Below, one piece after another: positions 1-58,657 of a DNA stretch of 64,000 nucleotides. The notes beneath the pieces are model-generated. The model was not told the DNA's origin and did not search any database. It worked only from the letters and a program-made list of their open reading frames with translations. Within the stretch, counting starts at the first letter, position 1. Each line of letters begins with the position of its first letter. Position numbers and translations under genes: made by a program. This stretch comes from a virus, in IMG/VR virus record IMGVR_UViG_3300050821_016647, positions 32,001-96,000 of that record; one strand, given 5' to 3'.

Positions 1-615
1 CGTGAGAGCAGGCGAGACCGAAGCCGTCACCGTTCCGGCATCGAGCCCGAAAGTGACGCCGCCTCCGTCACTGAAAGTGACGGCCTGAAGGTTATTGCTC
101 GTCGTGCCGGCAGACAGGTTGAACACATACGAGGCAGTCAGCGTCGAAGCATTGAGACCGAAAGAAATGCGGTTACTGTCCGCGAACGTGAAAGCGCTCG
201 CGAGATTGCTCGTCGTGCCGGCGGAGAGATTGATGTCTACTCCGGATACGTTCGCCGACGCGGTCACGTTCGTCCCGTCGAAACCGAAACTAATATTATT
301 TGCGTTCGAGAAGGTGACCGCTGAAACGTTGCTCGAAGTGGTCCCGGCAGAGATGTTGATGTTGGTGAGACTCGTCGCGACCGACGCAGTGATCGTCGAA
401 TTATTCAGCCCGAACGAAACACCATTTGCATCTGAGAAGGTGAAGGCCGAAGCGAGGTTCGAAGTTGTTCCGGCGGAAATGTTGATATCGACACCGGTCA
501 CATTCACCGATGCCGTCACCGTCGACCCAGCCATACCGAACGTCACGTTGTTCGAATTCGAGAAGACGACCGTGCCGGAAGAGACGCTATTGCCCATCGC
601 CGAGATGGCGAGGGC
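1..615 (-). repeat. Intragenic tandem repeats of 37-42 aa (SAGTTS units)
   Basis: SAGTTS-coding blocks at about 94, 205, 331 and 457 (spacing 111/126/126 nt); exact 18-mer attgctcgtcgtgccggc at 94 and 205; one degenerate fifth unit. Confidence 0.8.
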
Positions 616-1023
616 CGATCCAAGACCGCTAACGTCTACGAGAATTTGCCCGTTCGTATTGTAAACTCTGAACCCATTGCCGTCCGTGCTGTACTGAAGC
701 ACGTAGCCGGGCAGCAGCGTGAATGTGAAGAGAGGAATAGCCGTAGTGCCGTCCGTCTGTTGCACGGACACCGGACACGGAGCTCCACTCGTATTCGCAA
801 CGGACAAAAACTTGACGTTGCGATCGAAGTTCGCGGGTGGAGGCGGAACAATAACGGTTGTCGTCGCCGTCGTGATAGGCGGCATATCGAGCGCGCCCGG
901 AATGACTGTCGGAGGGCTCGTACTTGAATTGATGTCAATGAACGATGCGTGAACTGCAATGGATACAACACCGGCTCCGGTGACAAGTAAAATGCTCGAG
1001 GAGGTGTTGGGTAGATTGAGCAT
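1..1023 (-). CDS. Fibre/spike-like repeat protein, partial (runs off the left edge; absent from ORF track)
   Basis: ATG at 1023 and open frame to base 1 (341 codons): MLNLPNTSSSILLVTGAG...; N-terminal ~130 aa paralogous to 1033..1422; then Ser/Thr/Asn-rich repeats (I/L)SAGTTS..(A/S)FTFS(D/N)xNxxSFGLxxSTxTAS. Confidence 0.85.
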   Translation of the reverse strand, partial: MLNLPNTSSSILLVTGAGVVSIAVHASFIDINSSTSPPTVIPGALDMPPITTATTTVIVPPPPANFDRNVKFLSVANTSGAPCPVSVQQTDGTTAIPLFTFTLLPGYVLQYSTDGNGFRVYNTNGQILVDVSGLGSALAISAMGNSVSSGTVVFSNSNNVTFGMAGSTVTASVNVTGVDINISAGTTSNLASAFTFSDANGVSFGLNNSTITASVATSLTNINISAGTTSSNVSAVTFSNANNISFGFDGTNVTASANVSGVDINLSAGTTSNLASAFTFADSNRISFGLNASTLTASYVFNLSAGTTSNNLQAVTFSDGGGVTFGLDAGTVTASVSPALT

Positions 1024-1759: not shown

Positions 1760-2716
1760 TCACGGGATCGGCGTGATGTGCGCCGCAATGCGGTCGAGCG
1801 CGTTTTGAATGCTCGTAGGATTCGCTCCGGACCAGTTGGCCACGGTTGTCGCCGTGTACTGCAATCCGTTGGCTCCGGAAAGAAGCAGGGGAGCTCCAGC
1901 GCCTCCAGTAAGTACGACGACAGGGGGAATAGCGCCGGCCGTTCCTCGATAGCTCGTGTTGGCACCGTCGAGCGTCAACGGAGTCAGAAGCTGAGTCCCG
2001 ACAAGAATGGCTTGGAGAAGAAAAGCACCCGTCGCGGTCATTACGTTAGGAGTGACTCCTCCGTTCGTTCCAACGCTGTCCCCATTCGAAGACCAGAACG
2101 ACTGGAAGTGTGTGGCCGTGACATTCACATTCGACTGAATGTCATTGCCCTGAGTGTAAATGACGTTTACGTCCGTGAGGCTCAACGTCCCGAGAATGTC
2201 ACAAGTGATCAAACTCAAAGTCGAACCGGTACCTGCTCCACCCAGGACGGTCAGATTGTTGTCAAACTCACAATTGAAGAAAAAGAGGAAAGGTGTCTCG
2301 ATAGCTCCCCAGTTGAAAGTCTGGGACTGCGAGAACTGAATGTTGCTGAAGGTCGCGGTTCCAAAGTTTCCGAACCCACCGCCGATTGTCATTAGGCCGG
2401 TGAAAAACGTCCCCTCAGGCTCGATAGCCGTAAACGAGACTCCGCTCTTGAGCGAGAGATTGTCGCTATATGATCCGGGGCCCACCTGGATCGACCACCC
2501 GCCGGAGTTGTCCGTGGTCGCCAGAGCTTTGGTCGGCGTCAAGAACGGCGCGTCGATCGTTCCGTTGCCGGTCGCGTCATTACCGCCCTTGTTGACGAAA
2601 ATAATCTTCGTCGCAGACACTGGCGGAGGAGGTATAGGTTGCCCACCCTCGATGGCTTGGACGCGCTGAAGAGCCTCTGCCGCGATTGCCCAAACCTTCA
2701 TCAAGAGCGTTCTCAT
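1760..2716 (-). CDS. Beta-helix (DUF1565/pectin-lyase-like) fibre or spike protein
   Basis: IIFVNKGGNDATGNGTIDAPFLT..AL motif typical of DUF1565-type beta-helix N-termini; G/T/N-rich; paralogous to 3761..5563. Confidence 0.7.
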   Translation of the reverse strand: MRTLLMKVWAIAAEALQRVQAIEGGQPIPPPPVSATKIIFVNKGGNDATGNGTIDAPFLTPTKALATTDNSGGWSIQVGPGSYSDNLSLKSGVSFTAIEPEGTFFTGLMTIGGGFGNFGTATFSNIQFSQSQTFNWGAIETPFLFFFNCEFDNNLTVLGGAGTGSTLSLITCDILGTLSLTDVNVIYTQGNDIQSNVNVTATHFQSFWSSNGDSVGTNGGVTPNVMTATGAFLLQAILVGTQLLTPLTLDGANTSYRGTAGAIPPVVVLTGGAGAPLLLSGANGLQYTATTVANWSGANPTSIQNALDRIAAHITPIP

Positions 2717-3760: not shown

Positions 3761-5563
3761 TTACAGTCCGCCTGTCGCTTTCATGAACGCCAGCGTCTGT
3801 GCGATCTCGGGCGCTGTCTGCCCAACGCAGTATGCAACCATCGATCGGTAATGCCCCTGGAACACCTGGCTCGTCGAGGCTCCACCCGCGGTGATCTGAC
3901 CTACCGTAGAGGAGAGCGCAACGATGTCGACCGGTCCGACGCCGGCCGTCGTTACGGGCGGATTGTTGTCCAGGTAGATCGAAAGGTTGCCCTCAAACAA
4001 CGTACCTAGAACGTAGTGCGCGACAGCCCCCGACACGCTTGCGCTTTCCGCGAACTTGGGCGGGTTCACGCCAGATGAGTCGTTGATGAACACGGAAAAG
4101 ATCACGTTGCCGGGAGTAGCGGAATCGAGGCCAACGGTAAGTCCGATTCCGTTTCGATTGCCTCCTCCGTTCTGCGTCGAGGCAAAGATGATCGGATTGA
4201 GCTGGGACGCCAGCCAGTCCTTCGTTCCCGTGTAGAGGACGCAAGCCGCGATCGTGAATTCATCGGGCTTGAGGAAGAACGTCCCCGCCATCATCGAGAC
4301 GTCGGCGTATTGGAACTGGCTCATCGACGGCGACTCGAGCGTGTCGAGCGTCGCCTTACCGTTGAAACCCGCCGGATTGAACGTCGCGGGCGTGGTGCCG
4401 TCAACGAAGGTCGTCCAGAGCTGACCGACGCGCGACGGGGCCTGGTCAAACCACTCCGGGACTGCACCTGCGTTGTTGAACACGCCGACGTCAGCGTTGA
4501 CGAACGTCGTCATCCCACGTGTCGACAGGTTGAACGCGAACGCACCTGGCGCAGGTGACCATGTCACTCCGTTGACGCCGTCAGCCGTCGCGACCGTTCC
4601 TGCGGCTGCGGCCACTCCGGTTGAATTTGTGGAGTTCAAACCAACGACCGGTGACGTAGGAACAGGAGCCGCAGCTCCACCGACGAGCGTGACGGTAGAT
4701 GGAATTCCTCCAGCCGTCGCGGTATAGGAAGTGTGACCACCACCACCATCAGTCAGTGTGAGTGTCGTTCCCGCTCCTGCTCCCGTACCTGTCAAATTAG
4801 CAGAAACGTTCTGTCCTGCTGACGCGTTGATCGACAACGCAATACCGTTGAGAATATCACCGAAGCTCTGCCACGATGTTGCGACCGTTGCGCTAGAAGC
4901 GAAGCTCGTAGCTCCGGCAAACAAAGTAAGGTTCGTTTCAACAGAGCACCCGACGAAAGTAGACGAACCCCCAATCGTCGAACCTGTTTGAATAATAAAA
5001 AGAGCCCCTACTGCGCCGGTAACATCACCGGTAACTGAAAGATCGCCGTCTACATTGGTCTTCGCTCCTAAGAAAAACTGACCGAAGAAACCGCCAGCGT
5101 TGACCCCCGTGAAGTTGAGAGTGACGTTCCCTCCGACCTCACACGCGTCAAGCCCTCCCAAGACAAGATTTGCTGCACCGGCTGCAACCCATAGAGGAAG
5201 GTCGAGTGTAATTGAACCGTTGAGAAAAAATCCAAGCGTACTTGCATCGAGTCCCGAGACAATGACGTTTGGGACCCAGGAAATGCTCTCAGTATACCCT
5301 CCTGGACCTACCTGAATAAGTGCAGGCTGATCAAATGTCGGCGCTATCCCTGCCGCCACCGTCATCGCCTTACCGATGGTCAAAAACGGCTTCTCATCCG
5401 TCCCGTCTCCCGTCGCGTCGTTTCCACCCTTGTTCACGATGATCGTGAACGTTGCCGCAGGCAAAGGGCCGTCACCTCCGCCACCGCCGCCGCCGAAGAA
5501 GCTCCTGTAAAGGGCTTCGTCGGCGATCTGACGTGTTGCCTTGAGGACGTTTGCGGTTCTCAT
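3761..5563 (-). CDS. Fibre/receptor-binding protein: DUF1565-like beta-helix plus C-terminal ConA/LamG-like domain
   Basis: IIVNKGGNDATGDGTDEKPFLT motif; C-terminus with EFTIAACV, HYVLGT...LSIYLDN, ITAGG...FQGHYRSMVAY resembling a LamG-type lectin. Confidence 0.7.
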   Translation of the reverse strand: MRTANVLKATRQIADEALYRSFFGGGGGGGDGPLPAATFTIIVNKGGNDATGDGTDEKPFLTIGKAMTVAAGIAPTFDQPALIQVGPGGYTESISWVPNVIVSGLDASTLGFFLNGSITLDLPLWVAAGAANLVLGGLDACEVGGNVTLNFTGVNAGGFFGQFFLGAKTNVDGDLSVTGDVTGAVGALFIIQTGSTIGGSSTFVGCSVETNLTLFAGATSFASSATVATSWQSFGDILNGIALSINASAGQNVSANLTGTGAGAGTTLTLTDGGGGHTSYTATAGGIPSTVTLVGGAAAPVPTSPVVGLNSTNSTGVAAAAGTVATADGVNGVTWSPAPGAFAFNLSTRGMTTFVNADVGVFNNAGAVPEWFDQAPSRVGQLWTTFVDGTTPATFNPAGFNGKATLDTLESPSMSQFQYADVSMMAGTFFLKPDEFTIAACVLYTGTKDWLASQLNPIIFASTQNGGGNRNGIGLTVGLDSATPGNVIFSVFINDSSGVNPPKFAESASVSGAVAHYVLGTLFEGNLSIYLDNNPPVTTAGVGPVDIVALSSTVGQITAGGASTSQVFQGHYRSMVAYCVGQTAPEIAQTLAFMKATGGL

Positions 5564-8252: not shown

Positions 8253-8972
8253 TCACCTGTTGGAAATTACGTATGCCAGTCCGAACCCGGCTGCGATGCT
8301 GATGACTCCCACGGCAAGCGGCACGCCCCATCCCGCGAGCGCATCGCCGATCGTCGAAGCGGTCGTGGTTGGCGTCGCCGTTTGACCAACTCCTCGAACC
8401 GCGACACGTCCAAACCCCACTGGAAAGCTCGTGCTCCCAGGAATGGACGGTGGAGCCGAGGGCGACGAGCACGGCGGCATCTGCACTGCGCACTTCGCTC
8501 CTTCGCAACCCTCGCATGGACCGCCTGCGGCGCAGCTGCCACAGCACGGCTTGCCCGTCGCCGACGTTCCGGGCGCCGCTCCTACACCTTCGCCCACGTG
8601 CTGCATCGCCGGTACGCCGCGACGACCCATGATCGTGAGAATGGGCTCGACGCCGTGGCCGCTGTCGTCCCCACCGCCGTCCGCTCCCGCTCGAGGACGC
8701 ACCGCATAGGCCGGCGCCGGCTGAGGATAGGCGTGACCTGCCACGCCCAACTGACGTGACGGAGCTCGAGACTCCCATGCTGGCGGCACTGTGAGGCGCT
8801 CGCCGACGTGGAGTTCTCGAAACGTAGGAATCTGACCGAGTCCGACGCGCGCGGTGACAGAGGACTTGTGTGCGTTCGCACGCACGAGCTCGCTCATTCG
8901 TGCAGGATTGCCCGTCAGTTTCTGAGCAATCACCATCGGCGTGTCGCCAGGTTGGACGATGTAGAAACTCAT
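8253..8972 (-). CDS. Second LysM-domain membrane-anchored protein
   Basis: Start MSFYIVQPGDT at 8972 (ATGA overlap, GGAGG RBS); paralogous LysM; Cys cluster KPCCGSCAAGGPCEGC; C-terminal TM. Confidence 0.8.
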   Translation of the reverse strand: MSFYIVQPGDTPMVIAQKLTGNPARMSELVRANAHKSSVTARVGLGQIPTFRELHVGERLTVPPAWESRAPSRQLGVAGHAYPQPAPAYAVRPRAGADGGGDDSGHGVEPILTIMGRRGVPAMQHVGEGVGAAPGTSATGKPCCGSCAAGGPCEGCEGAKCAVQMPPCSSPSAPPSIPGSTSFPVGFGRVAVRGVGQTATPTTTASTIGDALAGWGVPLAVGVISIAAGFGLAYVISNR

Positions 8973-10165
8973 CCGGGACCTCCGTTGCCTTGCCGCCATC
9001 GCGCAAGCCGGCGAAGAATGGCGTCCGTCGTAGGATTCTGCGGCGCTCTTCCGAGACCGGTCATGTTCGGGCGATGCACTACCGTCTTCGGCTCTCCACG
9101 GCCCGTACGCCACTGTTTAGCGATTCGTTGAATGATGCCGTCCGCCTTCGTGACTACGGCTGCGGGCAGTCCTGCCAGACGCGACGACGTGTTCGACGCA
9201 TTCGGATGAGGAGGCGACGCCGGACGCTTCGGCTGCGGCTCGCCGGACTGACCACCTTCGGGCAAACACGCGTCGTACGCGCTCGTATCCTCGGCGCTGC
9301 GTCGCATCGTGTTGTCGCCGACCTCGGTCGTGTCGCGCGTAAGTCGGTCACCATCGCCGGGACGTCGGTACGTCTTCGGTGATCCGGTCGGCGCCTGCTC
9401 TTCCATCTCGAAGATGAGTGATCCTGCGATGCGGCCGTAGATCGACAGGGGGTAGTTCTGGACGAACGCGTCCTCGGGCGTCGTGCCTTGCGTCGTCAAA
9501 AACTGAAGTGCTCCACCACCCGTCGTGGGCGGTGGCGCGGAGCGGGTACTCGGGTCCGTCTGCTGCACGCTCGCCATGAAAACGATGTTGCAGGGGCCCT
9601 CGAACGCCACGTCGCAGACAGAAGGCTCACTCCAACGGTCGCAACGCAAGTCGAAGAAGCGACCGAGCTCAGGAGTAAGAACGTTACCCGGAAACGATCC
9701 GCCGTACGGAGGCGTGACGACATTTCCGACGATGGTCTCGAAGATCTGAGCCGGTGTCTGACTCACCTCGAACGCCATTCCCTCGGCGTTCTGCGCGTTG
9801 GCCAGAATCTTGGCACCCGGCGGAAGCTTGCGGATGCCCCAGAGAACGTTACCGTCGACATAACTCCACGTCGGCGTCACCACCGGCCTCTCGAGCGGGT
9901 AGGTGTACGCGCCACCACCCGTACCGAGTGGAATCTGGTCGAGAAGCGTCAGGTACTGGCGAAATCCCACCACTCGCCCGCGTTGCCCGGCGTTGAAATA
10001 CTTCGCGCACAGCACAAAGAGCTGCCGCTGCGTCGGAACCTGCGGACCGCCGTTCGTCCCGATGAAGAGGCCGAGGTCATACGGACCACCGAGTGGGTCC
10101 GAGCCAACAAGCTGCCGGTTCGGATTCAGCCCGACCGTCACGATTTCTAGGCGGCTGCGACGCAT
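8969..10165 (-). CDS. Beta-rich structural protein, candidate jelly-roll minor capsid/vertex protein with disordered C-tail
   Basis: GGAGG RBS; strand-like segments RGRVVGFRQYLTL, CNIVFMASVQQ, YGRIAGSLIFEM parallel those in 11366..11971 and 12087..13328. Confidence 0.5.
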   Translation of the reverse strand: MRRSRLEIVTVGLNPNRQLVGSDPLGGPYDLGLFIGTNGGPQVPTQRQLFVLCAKYFNAGQRGRVVGFRQYLTLLDQIPLGTGGGAYTYPLERPVVTPTWSYVDGNVLWGIRKLPPGAKILANAQNAEGMAFEVSQTPAQIFETIVGNVVTPPYGGSFPGNVLTPELGRFFDLRCDRWSEPSVCDVAFEGPCNIVFMASVQQTDPSTRSAPPPTTGGGALQFLTTQGTTPEDAFVQNYPLSIYGRIAGSLIFEMEEQAPTGSPKTYRRPGDGDRLTRDTTEVGDNTMRRSAEDTSAYDACLPEGGQSGEPQPKRPASPPHPNASNTSSRLAGLPAAVVTKADGIIQRIAKQWRTGRGEPKTVVHRPNMTGLGRAPQNPTTDAILRRLARWRQGNGGPG

Positions 10166-10189
10166 TACGCTGCCTCCCGTGCTATAAAT

Positions 10190-10220
10190 GCTGCCTGCGG
10201 CGCGTCAACGCCCAGGCAGC
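10190..10220 (+). promoter_or_regulatory. Stem-loop just downstream of a TATAAAT element, upstream of the endonuclease
   Basis: gctgcctg-c-ggcg-[cgtcaa]-cgcc-caggcagc; tataaat at 10183-10189. Confidence 0.4.
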
Positions 10221-10254
10221 GTGGCTCACCTCGACCTTTGCAGGGAGGCGAACG

Positions 10255-10299
10255 ATGAAGATTGTGAATGGTTTCCGTGCGCGTGTCGAGGTCGGTTGA
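10255..10299 (+). CDS. 14-aa leader ORF coupled to the endonuclease
   Basis: GGGAGG RBS at 10243-10248, MKIVNGFRARVEVG*, TGA immediately followed by ATG 10300. Confidence 0.35.
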   Translation: MKIVNGFRARVEVG

Positions 10300-11295
10300 A
10301 TGAAAACCGACCCGGAGAGCCGTTGGTTCACCATCTACGTTCACACGTGCGACGCGGACCCGCGAAGCAGCGGCGATCGTCTTGGTAAAGGAAAGCAGTA
10401 CGTCGGGCAGGTGGTTCATTTGCTCGGTGACGCTTCGGACACGCCGGAACTGGCAATGAAAAGGCGATGGCGAGCAAAACGTTATGAACGATCGCTGATC
10501 GGTCATACTGTCCGTCAGTTCGGAACAAAGAATTTTCGTCACGAGATTCTTGATACTGTACTCGGACAGACCGCGGCCAACCTCGCTGAAGCCGAGTGGG
10601 CTGAAAAACTCGATACCTACGAACCACACGGGTACAACAGAAGAAAATGTGGAACGCAGGGTGCACTGACTTTTGAGGAACGCAGTGCGTTTGGCCGCAT
10701 CGCGCGTCGTAAAGGAATGGAAACGCTTGGTCCAGAAGGACGAAGCGCAGCCATGTACAAGGCTAAGGAAACGTTGGGACCCGAAGGACGAAAGGCAATT
10801 AGTCGTAAAGCAATGGAGACACTCGGTCCCGAAGGACGGAGCGCGGCTGCTCAAAAAGCGAAGGAAACGCTGGGACCCGAAGGACGAAAATCGGCCACTC
10901 GCAAGGCGAATGAAACGAAGGGTCCTGAAGGTCGAAGTGCTGCCGTCCGCAAGGCGCTGAAAACAATGGGTCCTAAAGGTCGGCACGCACGTGCACTCAA
11001 ATCGAATATGACATCGGGACCAGATGGTCGAAGCGCCCGTGTGCGCAGAGCCAATGCGACGAGAGGGCCTGAAGGACGAAGAGCCTCTGCTCTCAAAGGA
11101 ATCGAGACTCAAGGTCCCGAAGGACTGAAACAACGCCTCTACAAGGCTTGGGACGTGCGTTGGTTCAAAGCGCTTCGACTCGCTCTTGCACAAAAAGACT
11201 TTGTGAGAGCTATCGGCGTTCTCAAGGCGTGCCTCTACGCCACAATGCGGAGGCTGGCCGAAGATCCTCTCTTTGGCGAACAGATAGTCGAATAG
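10300..11295 (+). CDS. Free-standing GIY-YIG homing endonuclease with nine 16-aa repeats
   Basis: FTIYVH...KQYVGQ GIY-YIG-like motif, downstream R, E (EAEW) and GYN; antisense insertion in the structural operon. Confidence 0.75.
   Translation: MKTDPESRWFTIYVHTCDADPRSSGDRLGKGKQYVGQVVHLLGDASDTPELAMKRRWRAKRYERSLIGHTVRQFGTKNFRHEILDTVLGQTAANLAEAEWAEKLDTYEPHGYNRRKCGTQGALTFEERSAFGRIARRKGMETLGPEGRSAAMYKAKETLGPEGRKAISRKAMETLGPEGRSAAAQKAKETLGPEGRKSATRKANETKGPEGRSAAVRKALKTMGPKGRHARALKSNMTSGPDGRSARVRRANATRGPEGRRASALKGIETQGPEGLKQRLYKAWDVRWFKALRLALAQKDFVRAIGVLKACLYATMRRLAEDPLFGEQIVE
10711..11142 (+). repeat. 9 x 48-nt (16-aa) coding tandem repeat K(A/G)xET(L)GPEGRxAxxx
   Basis: KGMETLGPEGRSAAMY / KAKETLGPEGRKAISR / KAMETLGPEGRSAAAQ ... 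KGIETQGPEGLKQRLY. Confidence 0.9.
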
Positions 11296-11365
11296 CGGGC
11301 CTGATGTCGCCGCGTATTGACTACTGACTATTTTTCGATCTCTCCACCTGCGCACGGGTGCCTCC

Positions 11366-11971
11366 TCACGGGCACTCCACCGCCGGGGGGACCCAAAATC
11401 CGAGCTCGCGAAGTTTGCAGGCCGCAACGTCCACGCTGATTTCGTCTACTGTGTGGTCCAAAAATTGCCAGCCGTTGAACGTAAGTACACAGTTGTACGG
11501 GGGCGCATTGGGCTCGCTCGCCGGGAACACTTGCGTGAGCATGAACTCGATCTCGATGTTCTGTTGCTTGTAGAGCGGCCACCCGCTCACCCAGCGCGAC
11601 GAGATGAGGTTCACGAAGTTGTTGAGCGGCGTGAAGTTCGGCGAGACGAGGTAGCGCGGCCCCGAGTGCACCGTGCAGCGCACCGAGATGCCTGGCGCCA
11701 TTCGGAGGTTCGCGTCGTACAGCGTCTTGAAGATGTTGCCCGCGAAGACGTTCGGCTGCTGAAGATCGTACTGGAGATTGTCTATCCAAGTTCTTTGGGC
11801 AATGGTTGTATCAAGACCAGCTTCGATGGGTTGCTGCCCCAGAGCCGCAGAGGAGAATGAACCCGATGCGTTGATCGAGATTGGAATCCGAGGAATCCCG
11901 AGGACGATCCCATACGCCGCGATCGGGTCCATGACCGCTAGGTCTTGAATGTACTGCGGCTTCGGTTCCAT
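11366..11971 (-). CDS. Beta-rich structural protein, candidate small single-jelly-roll capsid protein
   Basis: 201 aa; strands TWIDNLQYDL, ISVRCTV..RYLV, WPLYKQQNIEIEFML, YNCVLTFNGWQF; directly downstream of the MCP candidate. Confidence 0.55.
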   Translation of the reverse strand: MEPKPQYIQDLAVMDPIAAYGIVLGIPRIPISINASGSFSSAALGQQPIEAGLDTTIAQRTWIDNLQYDLQQPNVFAGNIFKTLYDANLRMAPGISVRCTVHSGPRYLVSPNFTPLNNFVNLISSRWVSGWPLYKQQNIEIEFMLTQVFPASEPNAPPYNCVLTFNGWQFLDHTVDEISVDVAACKLRELGFWVPPAVECP

Positions 11972-12012
11972 GCTCGTCCTCCTTTCCTTCTCTCGTTGAA
12001 GCTAAGCGCGTG

Positions 12013-12071
12013 AAAAACAAGATGCCCCGAAGCCACCCGACTCTCCCTCCTAGGAAAGAGAGCCGGGCAGC
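12013..12071 (-). terminator. Long hairpin plus U-rich tail after the MCP candidate
   Basis: On minus: gctgcccggctctc...gagagtcgggtggc (14-bp stem with GU pairs, 12032-12071) followed by cttgttttt. Confidence 0.55.
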
Positions 12072-12086
12072 TCCAGAGCTCTACGA

Positions 12087-13328
12087 TCAGCCGCCCGCTG
12101 ACTGCGCGGTCCCGACCACGCCCGCCGGGACGAGGTGGTTCAGGATGTACTGCTTCCAGGGTCCCCAGATCTCGAAGCCCTTGATGAGAATGGCGAGCTG
12201 GAGCGCGCCACCCTTCATGAGCACGCGATCCGTCTCGACGGCCTTCTCGACCACGATCGTGGTCGGCTCTGCCGTGTCCGCGAACGACAGCTCTGCGATC
12301 GTAACCGCCGTGAGGCCGTCCGTCGCCGGGCCGATCGGCATCACGGTGTGCGTGGTGCCGAAGCCATGGTCGTTGTTGGACAGGTATTGCTTCATGAGGT
12401 TCTGGTGGTACTCGTCCTGCGCCTTGAGCACCATCCCGATCGGGATGCCGCGCTCGAGCAGAACCGGCTTGAACAGCTTCCGGAACGGCTGGAGCATGCC
12501 CGTCATCCCCTGCGTGCGGAGGCCGCCGTAGGTGACGTCGAGCAGATCGTACGCGCGGGTCGGGTGGTACACGCCCGTGCTCGTCGCGCCGCCGGTCGTG
12601 ACCGACCCGATGCGCTGCGAGTTGATCGGGAGGAACGTGCCCGTATCACCGATGGGCGCGCCCTGGTACTTCGCGTTCACGCGGTCGACGTACCGCTGGA
12701 ACGCCTGCTGCGAAGAGCCCGCCGCGACGGCCTCGGCGTACGAGCCGAAGTAGCTCACGTCCGCCGCCAGCTCGTTGATCAGCAGGTAACGCTGCTGCAT
12801 GATCCACTGGAACTGGTAGGCGTTCATGAGGTGCCAGAGCGCGTTCTGCGCGCAGACGCCCCACTCGAGCGTGGCCGGGGTCATCGTCTGACCGCCCGAG
12901 AGTCCGAGGCCGGTCAGGTCATCGGTCGCGAACGAGTCGGGCGAGTTCGGGATCGCCCCGGATGCCGGCTGGAAGTTGATGTAGTTGCCGATCTGCGAGC
13001 CCTGCTGGGGCTCGGCAAACCCGTGCACGCCGAAGCCGATGACCAGCATGTCGACTTGGAGGATGCCGTTGATGACGAACGAGCTGTCGACGTCCTGGAC
13101 CCCCGGTACGGCCTTGGGGTTTTGGAGCACGTCGATCTCGTCACCGAACGTCCCGTCGATGAAGCCGTCGGCGACGGGCAGATCGATCGTCCACGTCACG
13201 TACTCGATGACGGGCACCTGCGTAAAACCGCAAGTGAGAACGCTGTTGACGACGTTGTCGGAGGGAGCCGCACCGAGTCCCACCATGCGGCTGGGATTCT
13301 CGAGCTTGTGCATGCTTGAGCTTTTCAT
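12087..13328 (-). CDS. Candidate major capsid protein (jelly-roll type)
   Basis: 413 aa, beta-rich, AGGAG RBS, very strong C/G third-position bias, followed by a terminator-like hairpin, next to the core protein; N-terminal leader ...ENPSRMVGLG; no HK97 features seen. Confidence 0.55.
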   Translation of the reverse strand: MKSSSMHKLENPSRMVGLGAAPSDNVVNSVLTCGFTQVPVIEYVTWTIDLPVADGFIDGTFGDEIDVLQNPKAVPGVQDVDSSFVINGILQVDMLVIGFGVHGFAEPQQGSQIGNYINFQPASGAIPNSPDSFATDDLTGLGLSGGQTMTPATLEWGVCAQNALWHLMNAYQFQWIMQQRYLLINELAADVSYFGSYAEAVAAGSSQQAFQRYVDRVNAKYQGAPIGDTGTFLPINSQRIGSVTTGGATSTGVYHPTRAYDLLDVTYGGLRTQGMTGMLQPFRKLFKPVLLERGIPIGMVLKAQDEYHQNLMKQYLSNNDHGFGTTHTVMPIGPATDGLTAVTIAELSFADTAEPTTIVVEKAVETDRVLMKGGALQLAILIKGFEIWGPWKQYILNHLVPAGVVGTAQSAGG

Positions 13329-13441: not shown

Positions 13442-15139
13442 TCAGTCCTCCGGGAACGAGGCGTACATCCCGAAGCCCTTGGGGAGAGCTCCGAGACACG
13501 ACTCATCACGAATCGCTGCCATCGCAGCAGCGTGCGTAGCGGCGATGCCGCCAGAGGTGCTCGTGCACGGAGCGCACTGCGGACCCGTGCTGGGTCCACC
13601 TGGCAGAACCGTTCCGGCCGGCGGGTCCTGGACCACGTCGCCGGTATTCGTGAGAATACCGTGCGGGGTCTGGAGCGGATGCGCAGGGTAACCGACAGGA
13701 ATGGTCGGTCCACCGCCCGGTGCATAGATCGCCGGAGGCGTGCTGCCGCCGGGCAATCCAGGAGGAGCGTTCCCTGGGCCGCCAGGCGAGTACGGCGCCT
13801 GGTTCGGCTGGGACGCTGGAATCACCATGGACGTCGGTGCAATCGGCGTGTTCACGGTGAGAGGCGAGGGAGCGTTCTGTCCCACACCGCGTGCCTTGGG
13901 CCCAGGGTCCCTTAGCGCCGGACGGCGACCGACACCGCGGGGGAGACCCGCGAGCGGAGTCGACGTCGTGGGAGCTGCCGCGGTTCCGGCTGCCGGAGTG
14001 GCCGCCGTCACCGCCGCCTGCGCTTCGATCTCGGCGAGGTAGAGCTGCTGTCCGAGCGCCGTCGAACCGATCATGGAAGCCATGACCGACTTGAACAGGT
14101 TGCCGAACAGAGCCGCGCCCGCGCCGAGCATCATGCCCTGAAGGGCCGCGCGGCCCCACGGGGAATCGACGAACGCCGCCGCGATCCCTGGCACCGCAGC
14201 CACGCCGAACTGCGCGGCCATGGACTGCCAGGATGGGAATGCCTGAGTCGCGACGTCGTTCGGAACGACCTGCGTGCCGCCCGGTGGAACGCTGTTCGCT
14301 GGCTGACCTGCCGCAACGGCTGTCGTCGACATGTACCGTCCGACGAAGTCCGCGAGACCGTAGCCGAGGATGCCGGTGATTCCGACGAGCACGAGCTCAC
14401 CACCAGACAGCGGGTTCGAGAGCACATAGCCCTCAGCACCGATCGTGTCGTACGCCTCGCGCTCGCTGTAGCCGGACCGACCGTAGGCCGGCAACCGGTG
14501 CGAACGCGGAGTGCGACGTGCATGTGACCGACGACGGCTCGAGCTGCGGCGCGTCTTGCGGTGCCGACGCGGAGCCGCACGACGAGTGCGACGCGCATGC
14601 GACCGACGGACCGAACGACGACGCCGACGCGGCGCAGAGAGCCCGAGGCGACGCCGACGCCGACGAATGCCCTTCAGGGCCGCCTTGCGGTGCCGACGCG
14701 GTTGCCCGAACCACTCCTTCGCGCGCGCCCTCTTCCGGCGGCGACGCGGAGCTGCGCGACGAACCGCACGACGCCGACGCCGACGGACCGGAGCCGCGTG
14801 GTGCCGACGCGCCGCGAGGCGACGCCGACGCCGACGGATGCCCTTGCGAGCGGCACGACGGTGACGGATCGGTTGTCCCTTCCAATCGGAAGCCTTCGCC
14901 CTGCGACGCCGACGGCGCTTGGGGGCTGCTGCCGCGGGGGCTGCAACGCGACGCCGACGCCGACGACGCGGGGCGGCTGCCGGAGCGGCTGCCCGGCGAC
15001 GACGCCTGCGCGGAGCTGCGGCGGGGGCTGCGGCCCTGCGACGGCGACGGCGCGGCGCTGCGGCGGACGACTTCACGAAGTGGCCCCTCGAGTTTCTTTT
15101 GCGACCGCGGGCTGCGCGCGACTTGCGGCGTGACTTCAT
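13442..15139 (-). CDS. Protamine-like Arg-rich core protein fused to membrane segments and a Pro-rich tail (alternative start 15502)
   Basis: AGGGAG RBS before MKSRRK at 15139; repeated APRRRRRR(A)n; duplicated W(K/F)GQPxRHR(R/K)AAxKG; hydrophobic helices after LSNPLSGG; two RGVG motifs. Confidence 0.8.
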   Translation of the reverse strand: MKSRRKSRAARGRKRNSRGHFVKSSAAAPRRRRRRAAAPAAAPRRRRRRAAAPAAAPRRRRRRRVAAPAAAAPKRRRRRRAKASDWKGQPIRHRRAARKGIRRRRRRLAARRHHAAPVRRRRRRAVRRAAPRRRRKRARAKEWFGQPRRHRKAALKGIRRRRRRLGLSAPRRRRRSVRRSHARRTRRAAPRRHRKTRRSSSRRRSHARRTPRSHRLPAYGRSGYSEREAYDTIGAEGYVLSNPLSGGELVLVGITGILGYGLADFVGRYMSTTAVAAGQPANSVPPGGTQVVPNDVATQAFPSWQSMAAQFGVAAVPGIAAAFVDSPWGRAALQGMMLGAGAALFGNLFKSVMASMIGSTALGQQLYLAEIEAQAAVTAATPAAGTAAAPTTSTPLAGLPRGVGRRPALRDPGPKARGVGQNAPSPLTVNTPIAPTSMVIPASQPNQAPYSPGGPGNAPPGLPGGSTPPAIYAPGGGPTIPVGYPAHPLQTPHGILTNTGDVVQDPPAGTVLPGGPSTGPQCAPCTSTSGGIAATHAAAMAAIRDESCLGALPKGFGMYASFPED

Positions 15140-15360
15140 TGGCAGTGTCTCCCTAGTGGAAAAACCCGGCGCTTTGGCCGACTTCGAAACGGTAACGAAG
15201 TAGCCTGTAGACGTCAAACGTCTCACATGATTGGCAGTCGTCGAACGCGGTTTACGACCACGTGAATAGCGACGGATCACCGAGAATTTGGCTCTCGAAT
15301 GCTTGCGACGTCGCGGCGCACTATTCGACTTGTCGGAGCGAGTTTTCGTGGCTACTCGCT

Positions 15361-15427
15361 TTGTAATACGCTTGTGTGCAGCGCTCGTAGACCGATTTCG
15401 CGATACACGCTTAGGTTTTGTATTACG
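15361..15427. promoter_or_regulatory. Two copies of TTGTA(A/T)TACG upstream of the core/MCP genes
   Basis: TTGTAATACG-ctt-GTGTGC at 15361-15379 and TTGTATTACG at 15418-15427; same motif at 28111 and 43736. Confidence 0.5.
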
Positions 15428-15543
15428 AGCGCCGGCTTCGTCGCTTTCACTCCTGAATGCGTTCATTCGAGCCGCATAATCCCCGCCGGATGACTTCGCC
15501 ATCCACAACGAATACGCCCACGCGGGCGGAACGACAACTCGCT

Positions 15544-15981
15544 CTACGGGAACACGTACCCGCGGTCGTCTACGATGCAGCCGTCTCCCAGTGACAACTT
15601 GTAAATGCGACCAGCTTTCCACAGAGTGGGTTGCCGCGATTTGAACGGGTGATGGAAGCCACCACTGGCTCGCTTGCCCTTGCGCACGTAAAGAATCTGC
15701 GCAACTTCTCCGACTTTCTTCCAGCCATCCTTCGGAATCTTCGGCAGCGTCGCGAGCACCGCTTGGTAGTCGGCACCGAAGTAGCGCCGGTGCGATCGAT
15801 TCATCTCGACCGGACGCCGCGTCTTCTTGAAGGGTCCAAAAAAGACATCACACTTCGGCAACACGACCCCTTCCTGGTCGTGGAACGTCCCATAGGATGC
15901 CGGCAAGCGAATGGTCTTACCGTTGGCCATCTCGAAGACCACGCGGTCCGACTCGACACGAATGGACGGCGACTCGCTCAC
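15544..15981 (-). CDS. Basic hypothetical protein (145 aa)
   Basis: GTG start overlapping the upstream TGA (GTGA); K/R-rich globular sequence. Confidence 0.7.
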   Translation of the reverse strand: MSESPSIRVESDRVVFEMANGKTIRLPASYGTFHDQEGVVLPKCDVFFGPFKKTRRPVEMNRSHRRYFGADYQAVLATLPKIPKDGWKKVGEVAQILYVRKGKRASGGFHHPFKSRQPTLWKAGRIYKLSLGDGCIVDDRGYVFP

Positions 15982-16379
15982 GACGCCCCCTGCTGAAGCG
16001 AGCTCGAGTACCCGCCGGGGGCCCCGCCTGAAGCAACGTAATTGAGCATGTTGGCCGTGGCCCACGTTTGGTAACCACTAACGGAGGGTGCCGTCCCAGC
16101 CGGCAACGACGCAACGTACATCGCCGGCAGCTGTGCAATCGAAGCGGCAAGCGCCGTCGACTGCGCCGCAGTCGGCTGCATCCCTCCGATGCCTGCGTTG
16201 GTCGCAAGGATCTGATTCAAGATCCCGTTCTGCACGTCCGCGCTCGGGGGCCAGACGCTGTTCTGATACGTGGTGTAAACCATCCACCCGACGCCGCCGA
16301 CGACGACCGCGCCCAGACCCAGCAGAAGCCACTGCTGAGCCTGGGGGGAAAGCGGGTTACGTCGGGAGCGCCGTCTCAT
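15978..16379 (-). CDS. Small membrane protein: Arg-rich N-terminus, NP motif, TM
   Basis: MRRRSRRNPLSPQAQQWLLLGLGAVVVGGVGWMVY. Confidence 0.8.
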   Translation of the reverse strand: MRRRSRRNPLSPQAQQWLLLGLGAVVVGGVGWMVYTTYQNSVWPPSADVQNGILNQILATNAGIGGMQPTAAQSTALAASIAQLPAMYVASLPAGTAPSVSGYQTWATANMLNYVASGGAPGGYSSSLQQGAS

Positions 16380-16722: not shown

Positions 16723-17646
16723 TCAGATCCTTCTTGGACCTGGAACTTTGCCGACTCCACGCACCATCTGCTGCGAAAACGCGTAGTCCTTTGCCTCTTT
16801 CACCGGAGTGCCGTCTGGAAAACACGGCAATCCTCTCTCGAGCCCGACAGGCACGTAAGACGCGCTGTCAGCTTGAGGCGCGAAGGCGTGAGCCATCGGA
16901 AAGACGCCAACGCCTGTTGGTTGAGCTGCTGGCTCTGTCTGCACAGGCACTGCGCCCACTCCAATGAAGTCGCCGTGGTCCGGTTCTTTTCCCATGGTCG
17001 TCGGAGCTCCGTTAGGTGTGGAAGACATTGTCCCGCTGATGGGGTCGACCCACCATTCCTTGGTCGCCGGATAGGACTCGTCCACGCCGTATTTCTCTGA
17101 CGACGGATCGACCTTCATCCAATTACCGTTGTCGCCGAGCACGGCGCAAATGACGTGGGTTGCCTGAGAGGTCCCGTACGCCTGACCTACGATCCGTGTC
17201 TCGATGCCAATCGAGAGCATTGCCGATGCGAACGCGATGCAGCGGTCATCACAATCGGCGGCAGGCATGCAGAGCCCATGTTCGTCCAGACAAAGCGTAC
17301 GAGCAGGAGTCGCCATGAGCTCGGTGTTGACCGGGTCCTGGACGTAAACGGTCCTTTTTCGAATCTCGTTGAGGATGGCTTGCGCCTGTCCTTTGACGGT
17401 CTTCGGCTTGCCCGCGGCAATGAGAACTTTCCCGGCGAACGCGCGGAGCCGCGGGTCATTACGGCCGTCGCGAATGTACTTCGACATCTCGTTGAGCGAG
17501 TAATTCGTCCCTTCAACCCCCGGTGGATGTCGGTCCTGAATCACCGGCGTTCCAAGCGCTTTCGCCGCCTCGGTCGCAGACGGAGCGAAGCCTTTGCCGA
17601 AACCAGCAATCGGGCGGGGAAATGCGGGAACGTCGGAATCGCTCAT
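16723..17646 (-). CDS. Transglutaminase-like (papain-fold) enzyme, candidate maturation protease or cross-linker
   Basis: Start MSDSDV two nt after the upstream stop; ADCDD (Cys), THV (His), WMKVDPS (Asp) catalytic-triad pattern; upstream YVQDP motif. Confidence 0.8.
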   Translation of the reverse strand: MSDSDVPAFPRPIAGFGKGFAPSATEAAKALGTPVIQDRHPPGVEGTNYSLNEMSKYIRDGRNDPRLRAFAGKVLIAAGKPKTVKGQAQAILNEIRKRTVYVQDPVNTELMATPARTLCLDEHGLCMPAADCDDRCIAFASAMLSIGIETRIVGQAYGTSQATHVICAVLGDNGNWMKVDPSSEKYGVDESYPATKEWWVDPISGTMSSTPNGAPTTMGKEPDHGDFIGVGAVPVQTEPAAQPTGVGVFPMAHAFAPQADSASYVPVGLERGLPCFPDGTPVKEAKDYAFSQQMVRGVGKVPGPRRI

Positions 17647-17648
17647 GG

Positions 17649-18224
17649 TCACCCCGCCAGTAAAACGTTCGGTGCGACCCAGTAATTGTTGAAGACCTGC
17701 GTCCACCCGGCCCCTGGCGATCCGACCTGGTACACGGCCTTGAGGTGGTGCGGCATCGCCGTCACACCGGTAGGACACCAGATCCAATACTCACCGACCT
17801 GATGCCACTGACCTTGACCGGCTTGCGGCGCCTTCGACGGCATCGCCCCGTGCGTGTACCAGAAGCCGCGCGGATCGAACTTGGGAGGAATCTGCGCGCC
17901 AGCGGCGACGAGCGTCGGCGCAGCTTGAATGTTGGTCTTGTGGCCTTCAACGATCGAAAGAGACGTGTGCTCCGGAGGAGGCGACATCGCAACATCAGGG
18001 CGCATCAGTGCTCCAACACCTTCCGGCTCTTTCGCGGCTCCTTCCGACTCCTTCCCTACTCCCTCCGGTTCCTTCCCTACACCCTCCGGCTCCTTCACCG
18101 TACTCTTCGTCGGTGCCGAGGTATCCGGCCACTTCTTCCTCTCTCCCCCAGGAAGCAGACCCAGACCTCGAATGATCCCCTGAGGGAAGATGTAGTCCTT
18201 GTCGGGATTGCGATCGTCACTCAT
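17649..18224 (-). CDS. Virion protein with KEPEGVG heptad repeats and aromatic/Gly-rich C-terminus
   Basis: AAGGAG RBS, ATGA overlap; leader KDYIFPQGIIRGLG; 4 x 21-nt repeat at about 18011-18095. Confidence 0.75.
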   Translation of the reverse strand: MSDDRNPDKDYIFPQGIIRGLGLLPGGERKKWPDTSAPTKSTVKEPEGVGKEPEGVGKESEGAAKEPEGVGALMRPDVAMSPPPEHTSLSIVEGHKTNIQAAPTLVAAGAQIPPKFDPRGFWYTHGAMPSKAPQAGQGQWHQVGEYWIWCPTGVTAMPHHLKAVYQVGSPGAGWTQVFNNYWVAPNVLLAG

Positions 18225-26181: not shown

Positions 26182-27255
26182 CTATCGTTTCTTCTGCTTG
26201 TATCCGCGCAGCTTCAACTTGCCGGCTTCTGCGAAGCTGTAGAACTTCGTCTTGGTGCAAATAATCACGTGATCCATCAGCTCCAAGTTGACAGTCTGGG
26301 ACGCGTCCCGAATCGTCTCGGTCAGGAGCTTGTCCGAGTCCGATGGTTTACACACCGTCGAGGGGTGATTGTGCACTACGATAATCGCTGAAGCGCCTTC
26401 GACGACAGCGATACGTAGAACGTCCGGCACGGGTACATCCACTTTATCGCGAGCGCCGCGAGCGATCTCACTGATCCCGCGGACCATGAGCTGCGAGTCA
26501 ATGAGAATCGCAAGGAAGACCTCCTGGTCCTGCGACATCATGTACTCGCCAACCAACTTGCAGACACTCTTCGGCCCCGTCATCGGACCGATAGCCTTCG
26601 CCGCCGCGAGACACGAGCGAAACCGCTCGGGATCTCGAGCGATACGCACCCACGGCAAGCATTGAGGAGTCCTCGACGCATACGCACCGGTGAGCTCCTT
26701 CGAAAACGGCGTCTCAATGGACTCCTTGATCGCGTACCCTCCCCCCTCACTCGCTGCGAACCGATCGAACACGACCGCGTTGGGTGTCCCCGCTCCTTCA
26801 CACGCGGGTCCGCAGCACGCGACCTGATCCCCGCCGGGCTCCGCTACGGCAAAGAGCGGCTCGCTCGCCGTGTTACCAGTCAGGAGTCGTCCGCGACCTG
26901 CAAACGCGACCTCGGTCCGTTGCGTACCCACGACCGCGACGTCGACAGCGACCTTGCCGTCACAGCCGCAGCCTGGCTTCTTCCCGCCCGAGAACGCCTG
27001 CTCGAGGTTCCCCGCCGCCTCTATAGAGGAGAGCGGCACCGGCCGACCGTACGTCTGCTCGTCGACCGCAAGGCCGCTGAGCTCGTCGGCTTGGTCCGAC
27101 GCGACCCAGCGCTTGGCCTGATCGAACGGCACGCCAACCAGGACCGCTTGGCCGCCGAGGTTCGAAAGAATCCAGGCTCGAGACGTCCCGTCTTTCAAGG
27201 TGAAGACGAGCTGGAGGCGGACAGAATATCCGGGCGTGTTTTCGGAGTGGTTCAT
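26182..27255 (-). CDS. JAB/MPN (RadC-like) metallo-enzyme with long N-terminal extension
   Basis: QEVF...HNHPS...PSDSD...LMDHVII: intact JAMM motif in the C-terminal ~130 aa. Confidence 0.85.
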   Translation of the reverse strand: MNHSENTPGYSVRLQLVFTLKDGTSRAWILSNLGGQAVLVGVPFDQAKRWVASDQADELSGLAVDEQTYGRPVPLSSIEAAGNLEQAFSGGKKPGCGCDGKVAVDVAVVGTQRTEVAFAGRGRLLTGNTASEPLFAVAEPGGDQVACCGPACEGAGTPNAVVFDRFAASEGGGYAIKESIETPFSKELTGAYASRTPQCLPWVRIARDPERFRSCLAAAKAIGPMTGPKSVCKLVGEYMMSQDQEVFLAILIDSQLMVRGISEIARGARDKVDVPVPDVLRIAVVEGASAIIVVHNHPSTVCKPSDSDKLLTETIRDASQTVNLELMDHVIICTKTKFYSFAEAGKLKLRGYKQKKR

Positions 27256-27296: not shown

Positions 27297-27743
27297 CTAG
27301 TCCGCCGCCGTCATGGCTTCGACGATCGACTTGCCGTCTGCCTCGCCGGTGACAGTCACGCCGCCTCGAGAGGTCACACCGACCGCCGAGTTGGGCGCGT
27401 CGTTCGGGACGAGGCGACCGCAGACGGCCGAACCGTTCTGCGTAACGCGCACCCAGACGCCGTATCCGGTCTCGCCGCCGCGCTCGATCGAGATGATGTC
27501 GCCTTCCTTGAAGCCGACGACGTCCGGGCCGACGCTCATGACGATGTAGCAGGCGTCTTTGGTCTTGTTACCGGGAAGCGCCAGAATCGACTTGTTCGGC
27601 TCGTACGCCGCCTTCTTGCAGAAGAGGAACCCCGGGCCCGCCTGCCACTTGTAGTTGCCCGCCGTCAGGCGGGGGTCCTTCTCCGGCTCGTACGTCCTCA
27701 CGTCGGTCACCGGTGACGTTGTTTTCAAGTCGTCCGTTCCCAT
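27297..27743 (-). CDS. GroES/Cpn10-like co-chaperonin
   Basis: AGGAG RBS; FLFCKK...SILALPGNKTK..YIVMSVGPDV.GFKEGDII parallels GroES RVIVKR..GIVL....GEVLAVG..VKVGDIV. Confidence 0.5.
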   Translation of the reverse strand: MGTDDLKTTSPVTDVRTYEPEKDPRLTAGNYKWQAGPGFLFCKKAAYEPNKSILALPGNKTKDACYIVMSVGPDVVGFKEGDIISIERGGETGYGVWVRVTQNGSAVCGRLVPNDAPNSAVGVTSRGGVTVTGEADGKSIVEAMTAAD

Positions 27744-28110
27744 CGCTCGTCTCCTCTGGCAGTTCTTCGTGTAGCAATCGGTCGTAAAGTCGCTTCGTGA
27801 TGACGTCGAGCTCGATAGCGAGCCAGGCTCGCTCCTTCTCGTCCGCCTTCCCCTTCCATGCATCTTTGAGCGCGGCGTGCCGCAACCTGACAACGTTCTG
27901 TAAGACTCGCAAGTGCTGGATCAGCGCTGGACTCATTTTTCCTCTTCAGTCGATGGCGGCGCCCACTCGGTCCACCACGGCGCCATGATGACAAGATGAA
28001 CAGTCCCTCGCCGACACTGCACGAGAGCTGAAGCCCGAGATGGACGTCGCCATCGACCGAACGAAGCGCGCCCCCGCTGGGAGGTTCAATTCCGACGGGG
28101 GCACACGCTC

Positions 28111-28129
28111 TTGTAATACGAAAGTGTGC
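28111..28129. promoter_or_regulatory. TTGTAATACG-N3-GTGTGC motif at the head of the structural block
   Basis: Exact motif in the intergenic gap; inside a gcacac/gtgtgc inverted repeat. Confidence 0.55.
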
Positions 28130-28135
28130 GGGCCG

Positions 28136-28411
28136 TCAACGGCGAGCGCGAGCGCGCTTCGGAGGCACTTCTTCCTCCTCTTCCTCGTCGTCTTCCTCTT
28201 CCTCTTCCTCGTCCTCTGGGCGCTCGTAGCCAGGCTCGAACCGTTCGAGGTACTCCTCGATCATCTCGTCGGCGAGCGCGACCGCATCATCGAGAACGAC
28301 TTCGAACTTCTTCTTGGGGTTGCCGCCGAGACCGGAGAGCGCCGCAGACGCGAACGCGAGCCACGCTTGACGTTCTTCGAGTTCACTGATGATGCCACCG
28401 AGCTTACTCAT
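28136..28411 (-). CDS. Small protein with long acidic tract
   Basis: ATGA overlap with thyX; EDEEEEEEDDEEEEEE then KRARARR. Confidence 0.75.
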   Translation of the reverse strand: MSKLGGIISELEERQAWLAFASAALSGLGGNPKKKFEVVLDDAVALADEMIEEYLERFEPGYERPEDEEEEEEDDEEEEEEVPPKRARARR

Positions 28412-30410: not shown

Positions 30411-30613
30411 CGTTCAAATCCTCCCGCTTTGAGCGCGGCCTCGGCCAGCTCTCGCGTTTTGTAGTAGTTGCTTTCGCGCGAGTAAGGCCCGCACGAGCAG
30501 TATGTCCCGATGTAGTGGCCGGCCGGCGACCGGTACACATCGAGCTTCGGCGTCACGCCGCAGTCGCCACACGTAGCCGCAAAGCCCGTCGCGATGGTCT
30601 CTCCGGGAATCAT
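30407..30613 (-). CDS. Small Cys-containing phage protein
   Basis: CGDC...YIGTYCSCGPYSRESNYY; ATGA overlap. Confidence 0.6.
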   Translation of the reverse strand: MIPGETIATGFAATCGDCGVTPKLDVYRSPAGHYIGTYCSCGPYSRESNYYKTRELAEAALKAGGFER

Positions 30614-30776
30614 CGACCGATCTTCGACTTCAGCTTCGCGCGCTCCCGGCGCAGGCGCTTCTTCGTGAGCCGCCGGTAATAGAGGTGCTCGTTGTACGGG
30701 CGGCCTCGAATCCAAACGCGAAATCCGCCTCGCCATTCGGCGCTCCCACGTGATTTGTTCGGCCTCGTTCCCGCAA

Positions 30777-31690: not shown

Positions 31691-31762
31691 GAGTCTTCTC
31701 CTTTTTTGTGGGTCGGCCCCCGTCATAATAACGTGAACCTGGTTATGCAAGAGCTGAAGTGA

Positions 31763-58578: not shown

Positions 58579-58657
58579 CGAAATCTTCTCGCGCGCTCGG
58601 ACGGGAGTCTACTTCCCGACCCTTTGTGGAGATCCTCTCTGCCGTTTCGCTTTTTCA

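Follow-up and report, generated by a model that had tools for sequence, protein, structure and literature searches.

The window, the 64,000-nucleotide stretch of DNA analysed here, comprises bases 32001–96000 of a 127,529-bp IMG/VR virus record (IMGVR_UViG_3300050821_016647; GC 61.6%). It encodes a trio of conserved proteins, referred to as A413, B201 and C, which probably form the shell of the virus. On this reading, the trio marks a new, widespread and diverse lineage of large (~80–127 kb), non-tailed, jelly-roll viruses of soil bacteria. A first-pass annotation of the window had reported open reading frames (ORFs) of 413, 201 and 398 codons for these proteins. All three were recovered at exactly the same positions, all on the minus strand, and the genome is, as that annotation anticipated, larger than 64 kb. 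Window coordinates of the trio are as follows.

12087–13328, minus strand: A413, 413 amino acids, candidate major capsid protein, mostly β with a jelly-roll core
11366–11971, minus strand: B201, 201 amino acids, single jelly roll, candidate penton or small capsid protein
8969–10165, minus strand: C398, 398 amino acids, the C protein of the window's genome
9371–10165, minus strand: N-terminal domain of C, ~265 amino acids, conserved (homology in 38 loci), third conserved virion candidate
8969–9370, minus strand: C-terminal tail of C, variable and of low complexity, lacking in most relatives

Conservation and predicted folds of the trio

Across 38–40 related metagenomic loci on contigs of 50–125 kb, the order A413–B201–C never varies, and in most relatives A413 shows the highest conservation within the trio. 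Homologues of A413 fall into more than 405 metagenome clusters and reside on contigs as long as 198 kb; none of the clusters carries a name or a Pfam domain. B201 homologues make up 104 clusters and those of the C domain 436 clusters at 50% identity. Moreover, contigs identical to the capsid region are present in soil metagenomes from at least three further studies. The ends of the 127,529-bp record match over 90 bp, a sign of a circular or terminally redundant assembly, and its CheckV completeness is 100%. Four complete genomes (127.5, 124.6, 110.1 and 79.6 kb) were compared by tblastn in both directions. They have a core of only about ten genes in common, and the same core emerged when the comparison was started from the 79.6-kb relative. 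The core encodes A413, B201, C, an Arg-rich protein, a 173-residue protein, a transglutaminase-core protein, a LysM membrane protein and a RadC/JAB protein, together with an SNF2-type helicase, an AAA_24 ATPase and a PD-(D/E)XK nuclease.

Searches for known relatives were negative throughout. No homologue of A413 was found among GenBank phages by tblastn, and neither the A413 sequence nor the A, B and C profiles found a relative among PDB sequences. Pfam and PHROG searches with all three proteins gave no match, and full-text literature searches uncovered no account of such a clade. Within the clade, homology to C is confined to residues 1–255 (38 loci) and the C proteins of most relatives are 265–290 residues long. 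By this comparison, the 130-residue tail in the window's genome is an addition.

The first-pass annotation had also aligned the three proteins by eye and proposed that they are jelly-roll-like paralogues. Every one of its motif strings is present and in the order given. In the AlphaFold models, the motifs of A413 lie on predicted β-strands (residues 96–102, 179–183, 291–304 and 379–386), as do those of B201 at residues 63–69, 133–147 and 162–169, while the PRYLV motif of B201 (residues 105–109) is located just ahead of a strand and not on it. Paralogy found no support in any statistical test that was run. Pairwise BLASTP among the three gave no meaningful alignment, the best being a 17-residue MxGLGxAP stretch (E 0.12) outside the aligned motifs. 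Profile–profile comparison of the families with hhalign (alignments of 35–109 sequences) gave probabilities of 0.1–0.4%, and comparing the two halves of A413 revealed no internal duplication. Since the BLASTP, hhalign and split-half tests were all null, the by-eye alignment is not above chance at the sequence level. Whether the proteins have a fold in common is a question separate from sequence paralogy, and here the predicted folds of A413 and B201 bear out the jelly-roll description for two of the three.

The AlphaFold model of A413, based on a 44-sequence alignment, has about 19 strands and four short helices (predicted local distance difference test, pLDDT, 84.8; predicted template-modelling score, pTM, 0.83). 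Foldseek returned low-probability matches only, led by papillomavirus L1 with 13 PDB matches at E≤1e-3 over ~450 columns; L1 was also the top match in BFVD. In the fold comparison the scores were 5.7 for PR772 P3, 5.0 for SH1, 4.8 for STIV, 4.0 for papillomavirus L1 and 3.9 for P23-77 VP17, all of them below the tool's stated background of 7–8. Further matches were to PBCV-1, Faustovirus and FLiP. The result carries weight because the top matches concentrate on shell proteins of the PRD1-type lineage. No HK97-fold chain was present among the top 50 of 48,161 chains for this nearly all-β model.

Single jelly-roll targets (discoidin, GOLD and the capsid halves of nucleocytoplasmic large DNA viruses) align over A413 residues 34–392 and not over one half of the protein. 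In addition, the N-terminal roll of D13 alone aligns over 144–145 residues, compared with 148–158 for the whole of D13. Both observations point to one roll with long insertions, a reading that also fits the strand order in the first-pass annotation and the L1 matches. On the strength of the model, we therefore lean slightly towards A413 having just one jelly roll into which long loops are inserted; a genuine double jelly roll is the less likely fold, but a serious contender.

The AlphaFold model of B201 (pLDDT 81.5) is a clean eight-stranded single jelly roll, and a BFVD search with it returned VP4 of SPV1 at a probability of 0.97. The structures closest to A413 and B201 include capsid proteins of P23-77, SH1, HHIV-2, SPV1 and PRD1. 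B201 is encoded directly after A413, in a position like that of a penton gene following a major capsid gene; P31 is not among its top matches. As to C, the ESM Atlas model is poor (pLDDT 0.31) and its neighbours are uninformative. A match of C to enterovirus VP1 (E 0.015 with a 35-sequence profile) disappeared when a more diverse profile of 109 sequences was used, and it is treated as chance since the better profile lost it.

Several features of A413 can be taken as signs of high expression and of a major structural role. As a lead only, its language-model features lie closest to clusters of phage major capsid proteins (0.93). Its GC content at third codon positions (GC3, 0.91) is the top value of the genome, tied with an integrase gene at genome positions 110030–111094, and its coding score is among the highest. 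A strong AGGAG Shine-Dalgarno site is located upstream, and a hairpin follows the stop codon.

12024–12079, minus strand: perfect 26-bp stem-loop with a U-run right after the A413 stop codon, terminator- or stabiliser-like (RNA fold)

The predicted free energy of the hairpin is −62.2 kcal/mol (z −4.17), and none of 200 shuffles was as good. A simple promoter and terminator scan did not rise above shuffled controls, and it overlooked this hairpin because the stem is too long. Two short soil-metatranscriptome contigs are ~95% identical to A413 at 12101–12245 and 12443–12754 and match nowhere else in the 8-kb stretch. As the run was found via A413 and may contain DNA, these contigs provide no evidence of A413 expression.

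Search for tailed-phage and packaging genes

The first-pass annotation had remarked on the absence of terminase, portal and HK97 capsid genes. This observation holds, and it extends to the whole 127.5-kb genome and four relatives. Pfam and PHROG scans of ~60 of the largest proteins of the whole genome found no terminase, portal or HK97 capsid. Six-frame searches of the five genomes with the terminase profiles PF03237 (Terminase_6N) and PF03354 (TerL_ATPase) and with the HK97 capsid profile PF05065 (Phage_capsid) gave no match at E≤1, while control genomes were positive. PF04860, the one portal family searched in the same way, also gave none, and no large ORF has a portal match in PHROG or Pfam. 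A very divergent terminase would still be compatible with these null scans. The terminase is normally the best-conserved gene of tailed phages. Genomes whose A413 proteins are 43–52% identical should share a recognisable one, and among the four complete genomes no conserved large protein without an assignment is left that could be a terminase or a portal, which argues against a tailed phage.

A packaging ATPase had been expected to the left of the window. It is not there: the only ATPases encoded in this region are a ComM/ChlI-like one and a classical AAA+ one, neither of which is conserved in the relatives. The Walker-A proteins of the window's genome are of ComM/ChlI-like, classical AAA+, AAA_24 and D5-type primase-helicase kinds. 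Those of the relatives (dNMP-kinase-like, RecD- and UvrD-type helicases, a ParB neighbour and one HerA-like protein) were considered as packaging ATPases and rejected, none being clade-wide. The HerA-like gene is found in a single relative, beside ParB and outside the capsid block.

A crude hydropathy scan detected a hydrophobic 19-mer in 38 of the 174 predicted genes, most of them small and clustered. These many small predicted membrane proteins point, indirectly, to an internal membrane.

Proposed virion, rival readings and known viruses

The genes around the trio that enter into a model of the virion, and the outer border of the block, are the following.

13442–15622, minus strand: Arg-rich ORF of 726 amino acids directly upstream of A413, with hydrophobic helices and a Pro-rich tail; start codon uncertain
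15544–16065, minus strand: conserved 173-amino-acid protein of the module (tblastn conservation)
16723–17787, minus strand: transglutaminase-core protein of papain-like cysteine protease fold (PF01841, 2.9e-7; 33 loci, all four full genomes)
8253–8972, minus strand: LysM-like protein with a C-terminal membrane anchor (weak LysM match, endolysin phrog_380; conserved in 28 loci)
26182–27255, minus strand: RadC-like JAB-domain protein, conserved outer border of the morphogenesis block (PF04002, 2.3e-29; 21 loci, all four genomes)

In the Arg-rich ORF, 29% of the first 420 residues are Arg (AAAP-R6 repeats) and homology in the C-terminal half extends to 22 loci; the codon-based gene caller passed over it owing to its composition. 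Its product is a candidate for a DNA-condensing, membrane-anchored core protein. The transglutaminase-core protein is the candidate maturation protease of the module. A possible processing site lies in A413, where a disordered and variable leader of 16 residues is followed by a near-invariant G-L-G-x-x-P motif (G17, G19 and P22; residues 16–22, window 13263–13283), which could be cleaved by the transglutaminase-fold protease. A similar stretch, M-T-G-L-G-R-A-P, is present near the end of the C398 tail (residues 369–375, window 9041–9061; BLASTP E 0.12 to the A413 leader motif). The probable ATG of the LysM-like gene overlaps the stop codon of C (ATGA).

In the proposed virion, A413 would be the major capsid protein, with a jelly-roll core and large elaborations. 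B201 would occupy the fivefold position as penton or serve as a second small capsid protein (cf. VP10 of SPV1 and VP16 of P23-77). The ~265-residue domain of C would be a third virion protein, probably at the vertex or beneath the shell. The shell would be icosahedral and cover a membrane bearing many small membrane proteins. Because no packaging ATPase was found and the Arg-rich protein is encoded just upstream of A413, the DNA is suggested to be condensed by this membrane-anchored protein and not pumped by a conserved motor, with assembly taking place around it. The transglutaminase-like cysteine protease would mature virion proteins, and entry and exit would involve wall-binding and wall-cutting proteins of the LysM, GH25 and SLT types as well as β-helix fibres.

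Several points weigh against the jelly-roll shell reading. Neither the sequences nor the profiles of the trio resemble any known capsid protein. With fold scores below the background, no single match of the A413 model means homology, and the fold predictions cover A413 and B201, not C. The jelly-roll fold is also seen in fibres, lectins and decoration proteins. A packaging ATPase is encoded by nearly all known PRD1-type viruses, and none was detected here: the FtsK profile PF01580 gave no match in the window's genome and the Pox_A32 profile PF04665 none in the five genomes. Furthermore, the virions, their membrane and their icosahedral symmetry are predictions from genes and models.

One variant of the jelly-roll shell reading is strictly PRD1-type: A413 would be a double jelly-roll, trimeric major capsid protein, B201 the penton base and C the spike of a giant bacterial member of Bamfordvirae. 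The secondary structure of A413 is open to a division into 8+8 strands, each half containing a helix (residues 158–170 and 306–316), and a capsid gene followed by a small jelly-roll gene is the order of major capsid and penton genes in the PRD1 lineage. The alignments of single-roll targets and of D13 described above speak against two rolls, as does the lack of an internal duplication in A413. The variant would also lead one to expect an ATPase of the FtsK/HerA type (searched in the window's genome) or the A32 type (five genomes), and neither was detected. A 2018 census found prokaryotic double jelly-roll viruses to have genomes of 7–18 kb and singled out the FtsK-HerA packaging ATPase as the gene they most prominently share (PMC5894146). 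We regard this variant as unlikely.

A tailed phage, in which the HK97 capsid, portal and terminase have diverged too far for detection and the trio encodes decoration, cement, fibre or adhesin proteins, is a still weaker candidate. It could draw on the language-model features of A413, which are closest to HK97-type phage major-capsid clusters (0.93; few features are shared, so this is a lead only), and on cement or decoration jelly rolls of the tailed phages Pam1 and KHP40 among the weak fold matches. The null profile searches with their working controls, the lack of any other large unknown protein common to genomes with 43–52% identical A413 and the almost all-β model, distant from HK97 folds, run counter to it. 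Two fibre-like proteins have weak "tail protein" PHROG matches, but these amount to ~55 residues of a pectate-lyase-like N-terminus. About equally improbable is another virion type (pleomorphic, enveloped or a nucleoprotein-filled vesicle) or a plasmid-like element, with the jelly rolls acting as spikes, fusion or matrix proteins. The very high share of small membrane proteins, the lack of a detected packaging motor, the protamine-like membrane-anchored protein next to A413 and the partition-type ParB and HerA-like genes of relatives would all suit it. The top fold matches of A413 and B201 are nevertheless shell-forming capsid proteins and not fusion or spike proteins, and a 400-residue protein with top codon bias beside a 200-residue jelly roll is the usual shell pair of icosahedral membrane viruses. 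Lysis-type enzymes and fibres are encoded as well.

Among known viruses, the closest analogues of the proposed jelly-roll virion would be SPV1 (two single-roll shell proteins and no motor), the P23-77/SH1 group (a large and a small single-roll protein) and PRD1 (the best fold match). Membership in Portogloboviridae, Helvetiavirae or Bamfordvirae fails or stays undecided, given no sequence similarity, weak fold scores, no FtsK-type ATPase and a several-fold larger genome. SPV1 (Portogloboviridae; VP4, VP10 and VP1) resembles the window's virus in that VP4 matches B201, no packaging ATPase is detectable in either and the capsid gene has a gene for a basic protein next to it. It differs in its 20-kb genome, its hyperthermophilic archaeal host and its shell proteins of ~180 residues, compared with 127.5 kb, a bacterial host and a main protein of 413 residues. 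The SPV1 virion has been described as a single jelly-roll shell enclosing a lipid layer, with a nucleoprotein core beneath (PMC8459092).

The likeness to Helvetiavirae (P23-77 VP16/VP17; VP4/VP7 of SH1, HHIV-2 and HCIV-1), which are tailless and membrane-containing, lies in the adjacent large and small jelly-roll capsid genes. In Helvetiavirae the capsid genes come after a conserved packaging ATPase gene, and the order in the window, large, small and then a third conserved gene, is unlike theirs. In fold score they do not surpass PRD1 or SPV1, and their genomes are only 16–31 kb, with ~30 kb for sphaerolipoviruses (PMC12643093) and 16–19 kb for simuloviruses (PMC12642351). The architecture put forward in the first-pass annotation, similar to that of P23-77, is accordingly upheld in part. 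A large, tailless-looking jelly-roll virus agrees with the predicted folds of A413 and B201 and the lack of tailed-phage hallmark genes; the P23-77-type layout and the membrane are putative, and no packaging ATPase was detected nearby.

PRD1 (Tectiviridae; P3, P31 and P9) also has a bacterial host and a capsid gene adjoining a small jelly-roll gene. Its genome is linear and 15 kb long and encodes an FtsK-type ATPase; the trio, in contrast, matches no Pfam capsid family, including that of P3. Papillomavirus L1 is a single roll with long surface loops, as in the one-roll reading of A413. L1 builds 72-pentamer shells around 8-kb genomes of animal viruses, and no relationship is claimed.

In a bolder version, offered tentatively, the clade would be an unrecognised high-rank lineage of bacterial viruses from soils, peat and freshwater, comprising hundreds of 50%-identity clusters, with a jelly-roll capsid, genomes of 80–127 kb and neither a terminase nor an FtsK-type motor. 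Shell and membrane would be assembled around DNA condensed by a protamine-like protein, as in SPV1 or polyoma- and papillomaviruses, and a transglutaminase-fold protease would carry out maturation. If this were true, the genomes would be 5–10 times larger than those of any described prokaryotic jelly-roll virus, and motorless filling would operate at jumbo scale. Non-tailed dsDNA phages with jelly-roll capsids described so far have small genomes. The clade would extend the size range of bacterial jelly-roll virions several-fold and add a common group of soil viruses that lies beyond marker-based classifiers. It would also raise the question by what means, in the absence of a known motor, 100 kb of DNA enters a jelly-roll shell. 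The clade can be tested directly with the family alignments and loci assembled in this analysis.

Other genes of the window and its relatives

A further gene, which is not part of the trio, lies between B201 and C.

10300–11295, plus strand: homing-endonuclease-like gene, 331 amino acids (phrog_314, 1.7e-6; phrog_7168, 4.5e-5)

Its product carries tandem ETLGPEGR(S/K)AA repeats. In six of ~40 relatives (L019, L024, L035, L036, L039 and L043), the B/C junction is likewise occupied by divergent endonuclease copies (26–36% identity). These copies are on the capsid strand, whereas the copy in the window's genome is on the opposite strand. This pattern suggests repeated homing into a conserved B/C junction.

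Elsewhere in the genome, Pfam and PHROG matches are to replication and recombination proteins, a methylase, ThyX, RadC, two integrases, a subtilase and two AAA+ proteins. No tRNA genes are present in the window. The wall enzymes encoded are a GH25 muramidase, SLT and LysM proteins, and from such peptidoglycan enzymes the host is evidently bacterial. These proteins, the two integrases, the fibre paralogues and the identical contigs in other soil metagenomes together favour a virus of bacteria. The capsid gene was found in just four short contigs of metagenome-assembled genomes (Acidimicrobiales, Binatia and Polyangiaceae bins), which are probably viral contigs caught in bins.

Three paralogues of 386, 486 and 533 amino acids are encoded at genome positions 27486–33023 (L003:11486–17023), the last gene ending in window 1–1023. 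They consist of ISAGTTSxNLxAVTFSNSNNVSFGL-type repeats and a common C-terminal domain, and a 420-residue gene lies among them. The 533-, 486-, 420- and 386-residue genes were considered as a terminase, portal, scaffold and capsid set and rejected, as three are β-helix repeat fibre paralogues and conservation of the set does not extend to relatives. The three paralogues are probably exchangeable receptor-binding fibres. Two proteins of the pectate-lyase or right-handed β-helix kind (window 1760–2716 and 3761–5563, minus strand) have a common VNKGGNDATGxGT...PFLT N-terminus, and their only database match is that to ~55 residues of the "tail protein" PHROG. They are candidate depolymerase spikes. 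The fibre paralogues and the pectate-lyase-like proteins are thus assigned as receptor-binding proteins and not as head genes.

ParB-like genes are present in relatives, one of which carries the HerA/DUF87-like ATPase (G004, L054:3863–4789 and L054:6934–8739; G003, L049:14978–15958). Judging from such genes, some members of the clade may be maintained in a plasmid-like manner. The window's genome, unlike these relatives, has two tyrosine integrases. Finally, the UvrD-like helicase gene of G004 (L052:16670–19138; 56670–59138, minus strand) appears to be split by an intein-like insertion that extends from C-I-P-A-G to V-V-H-N-C.

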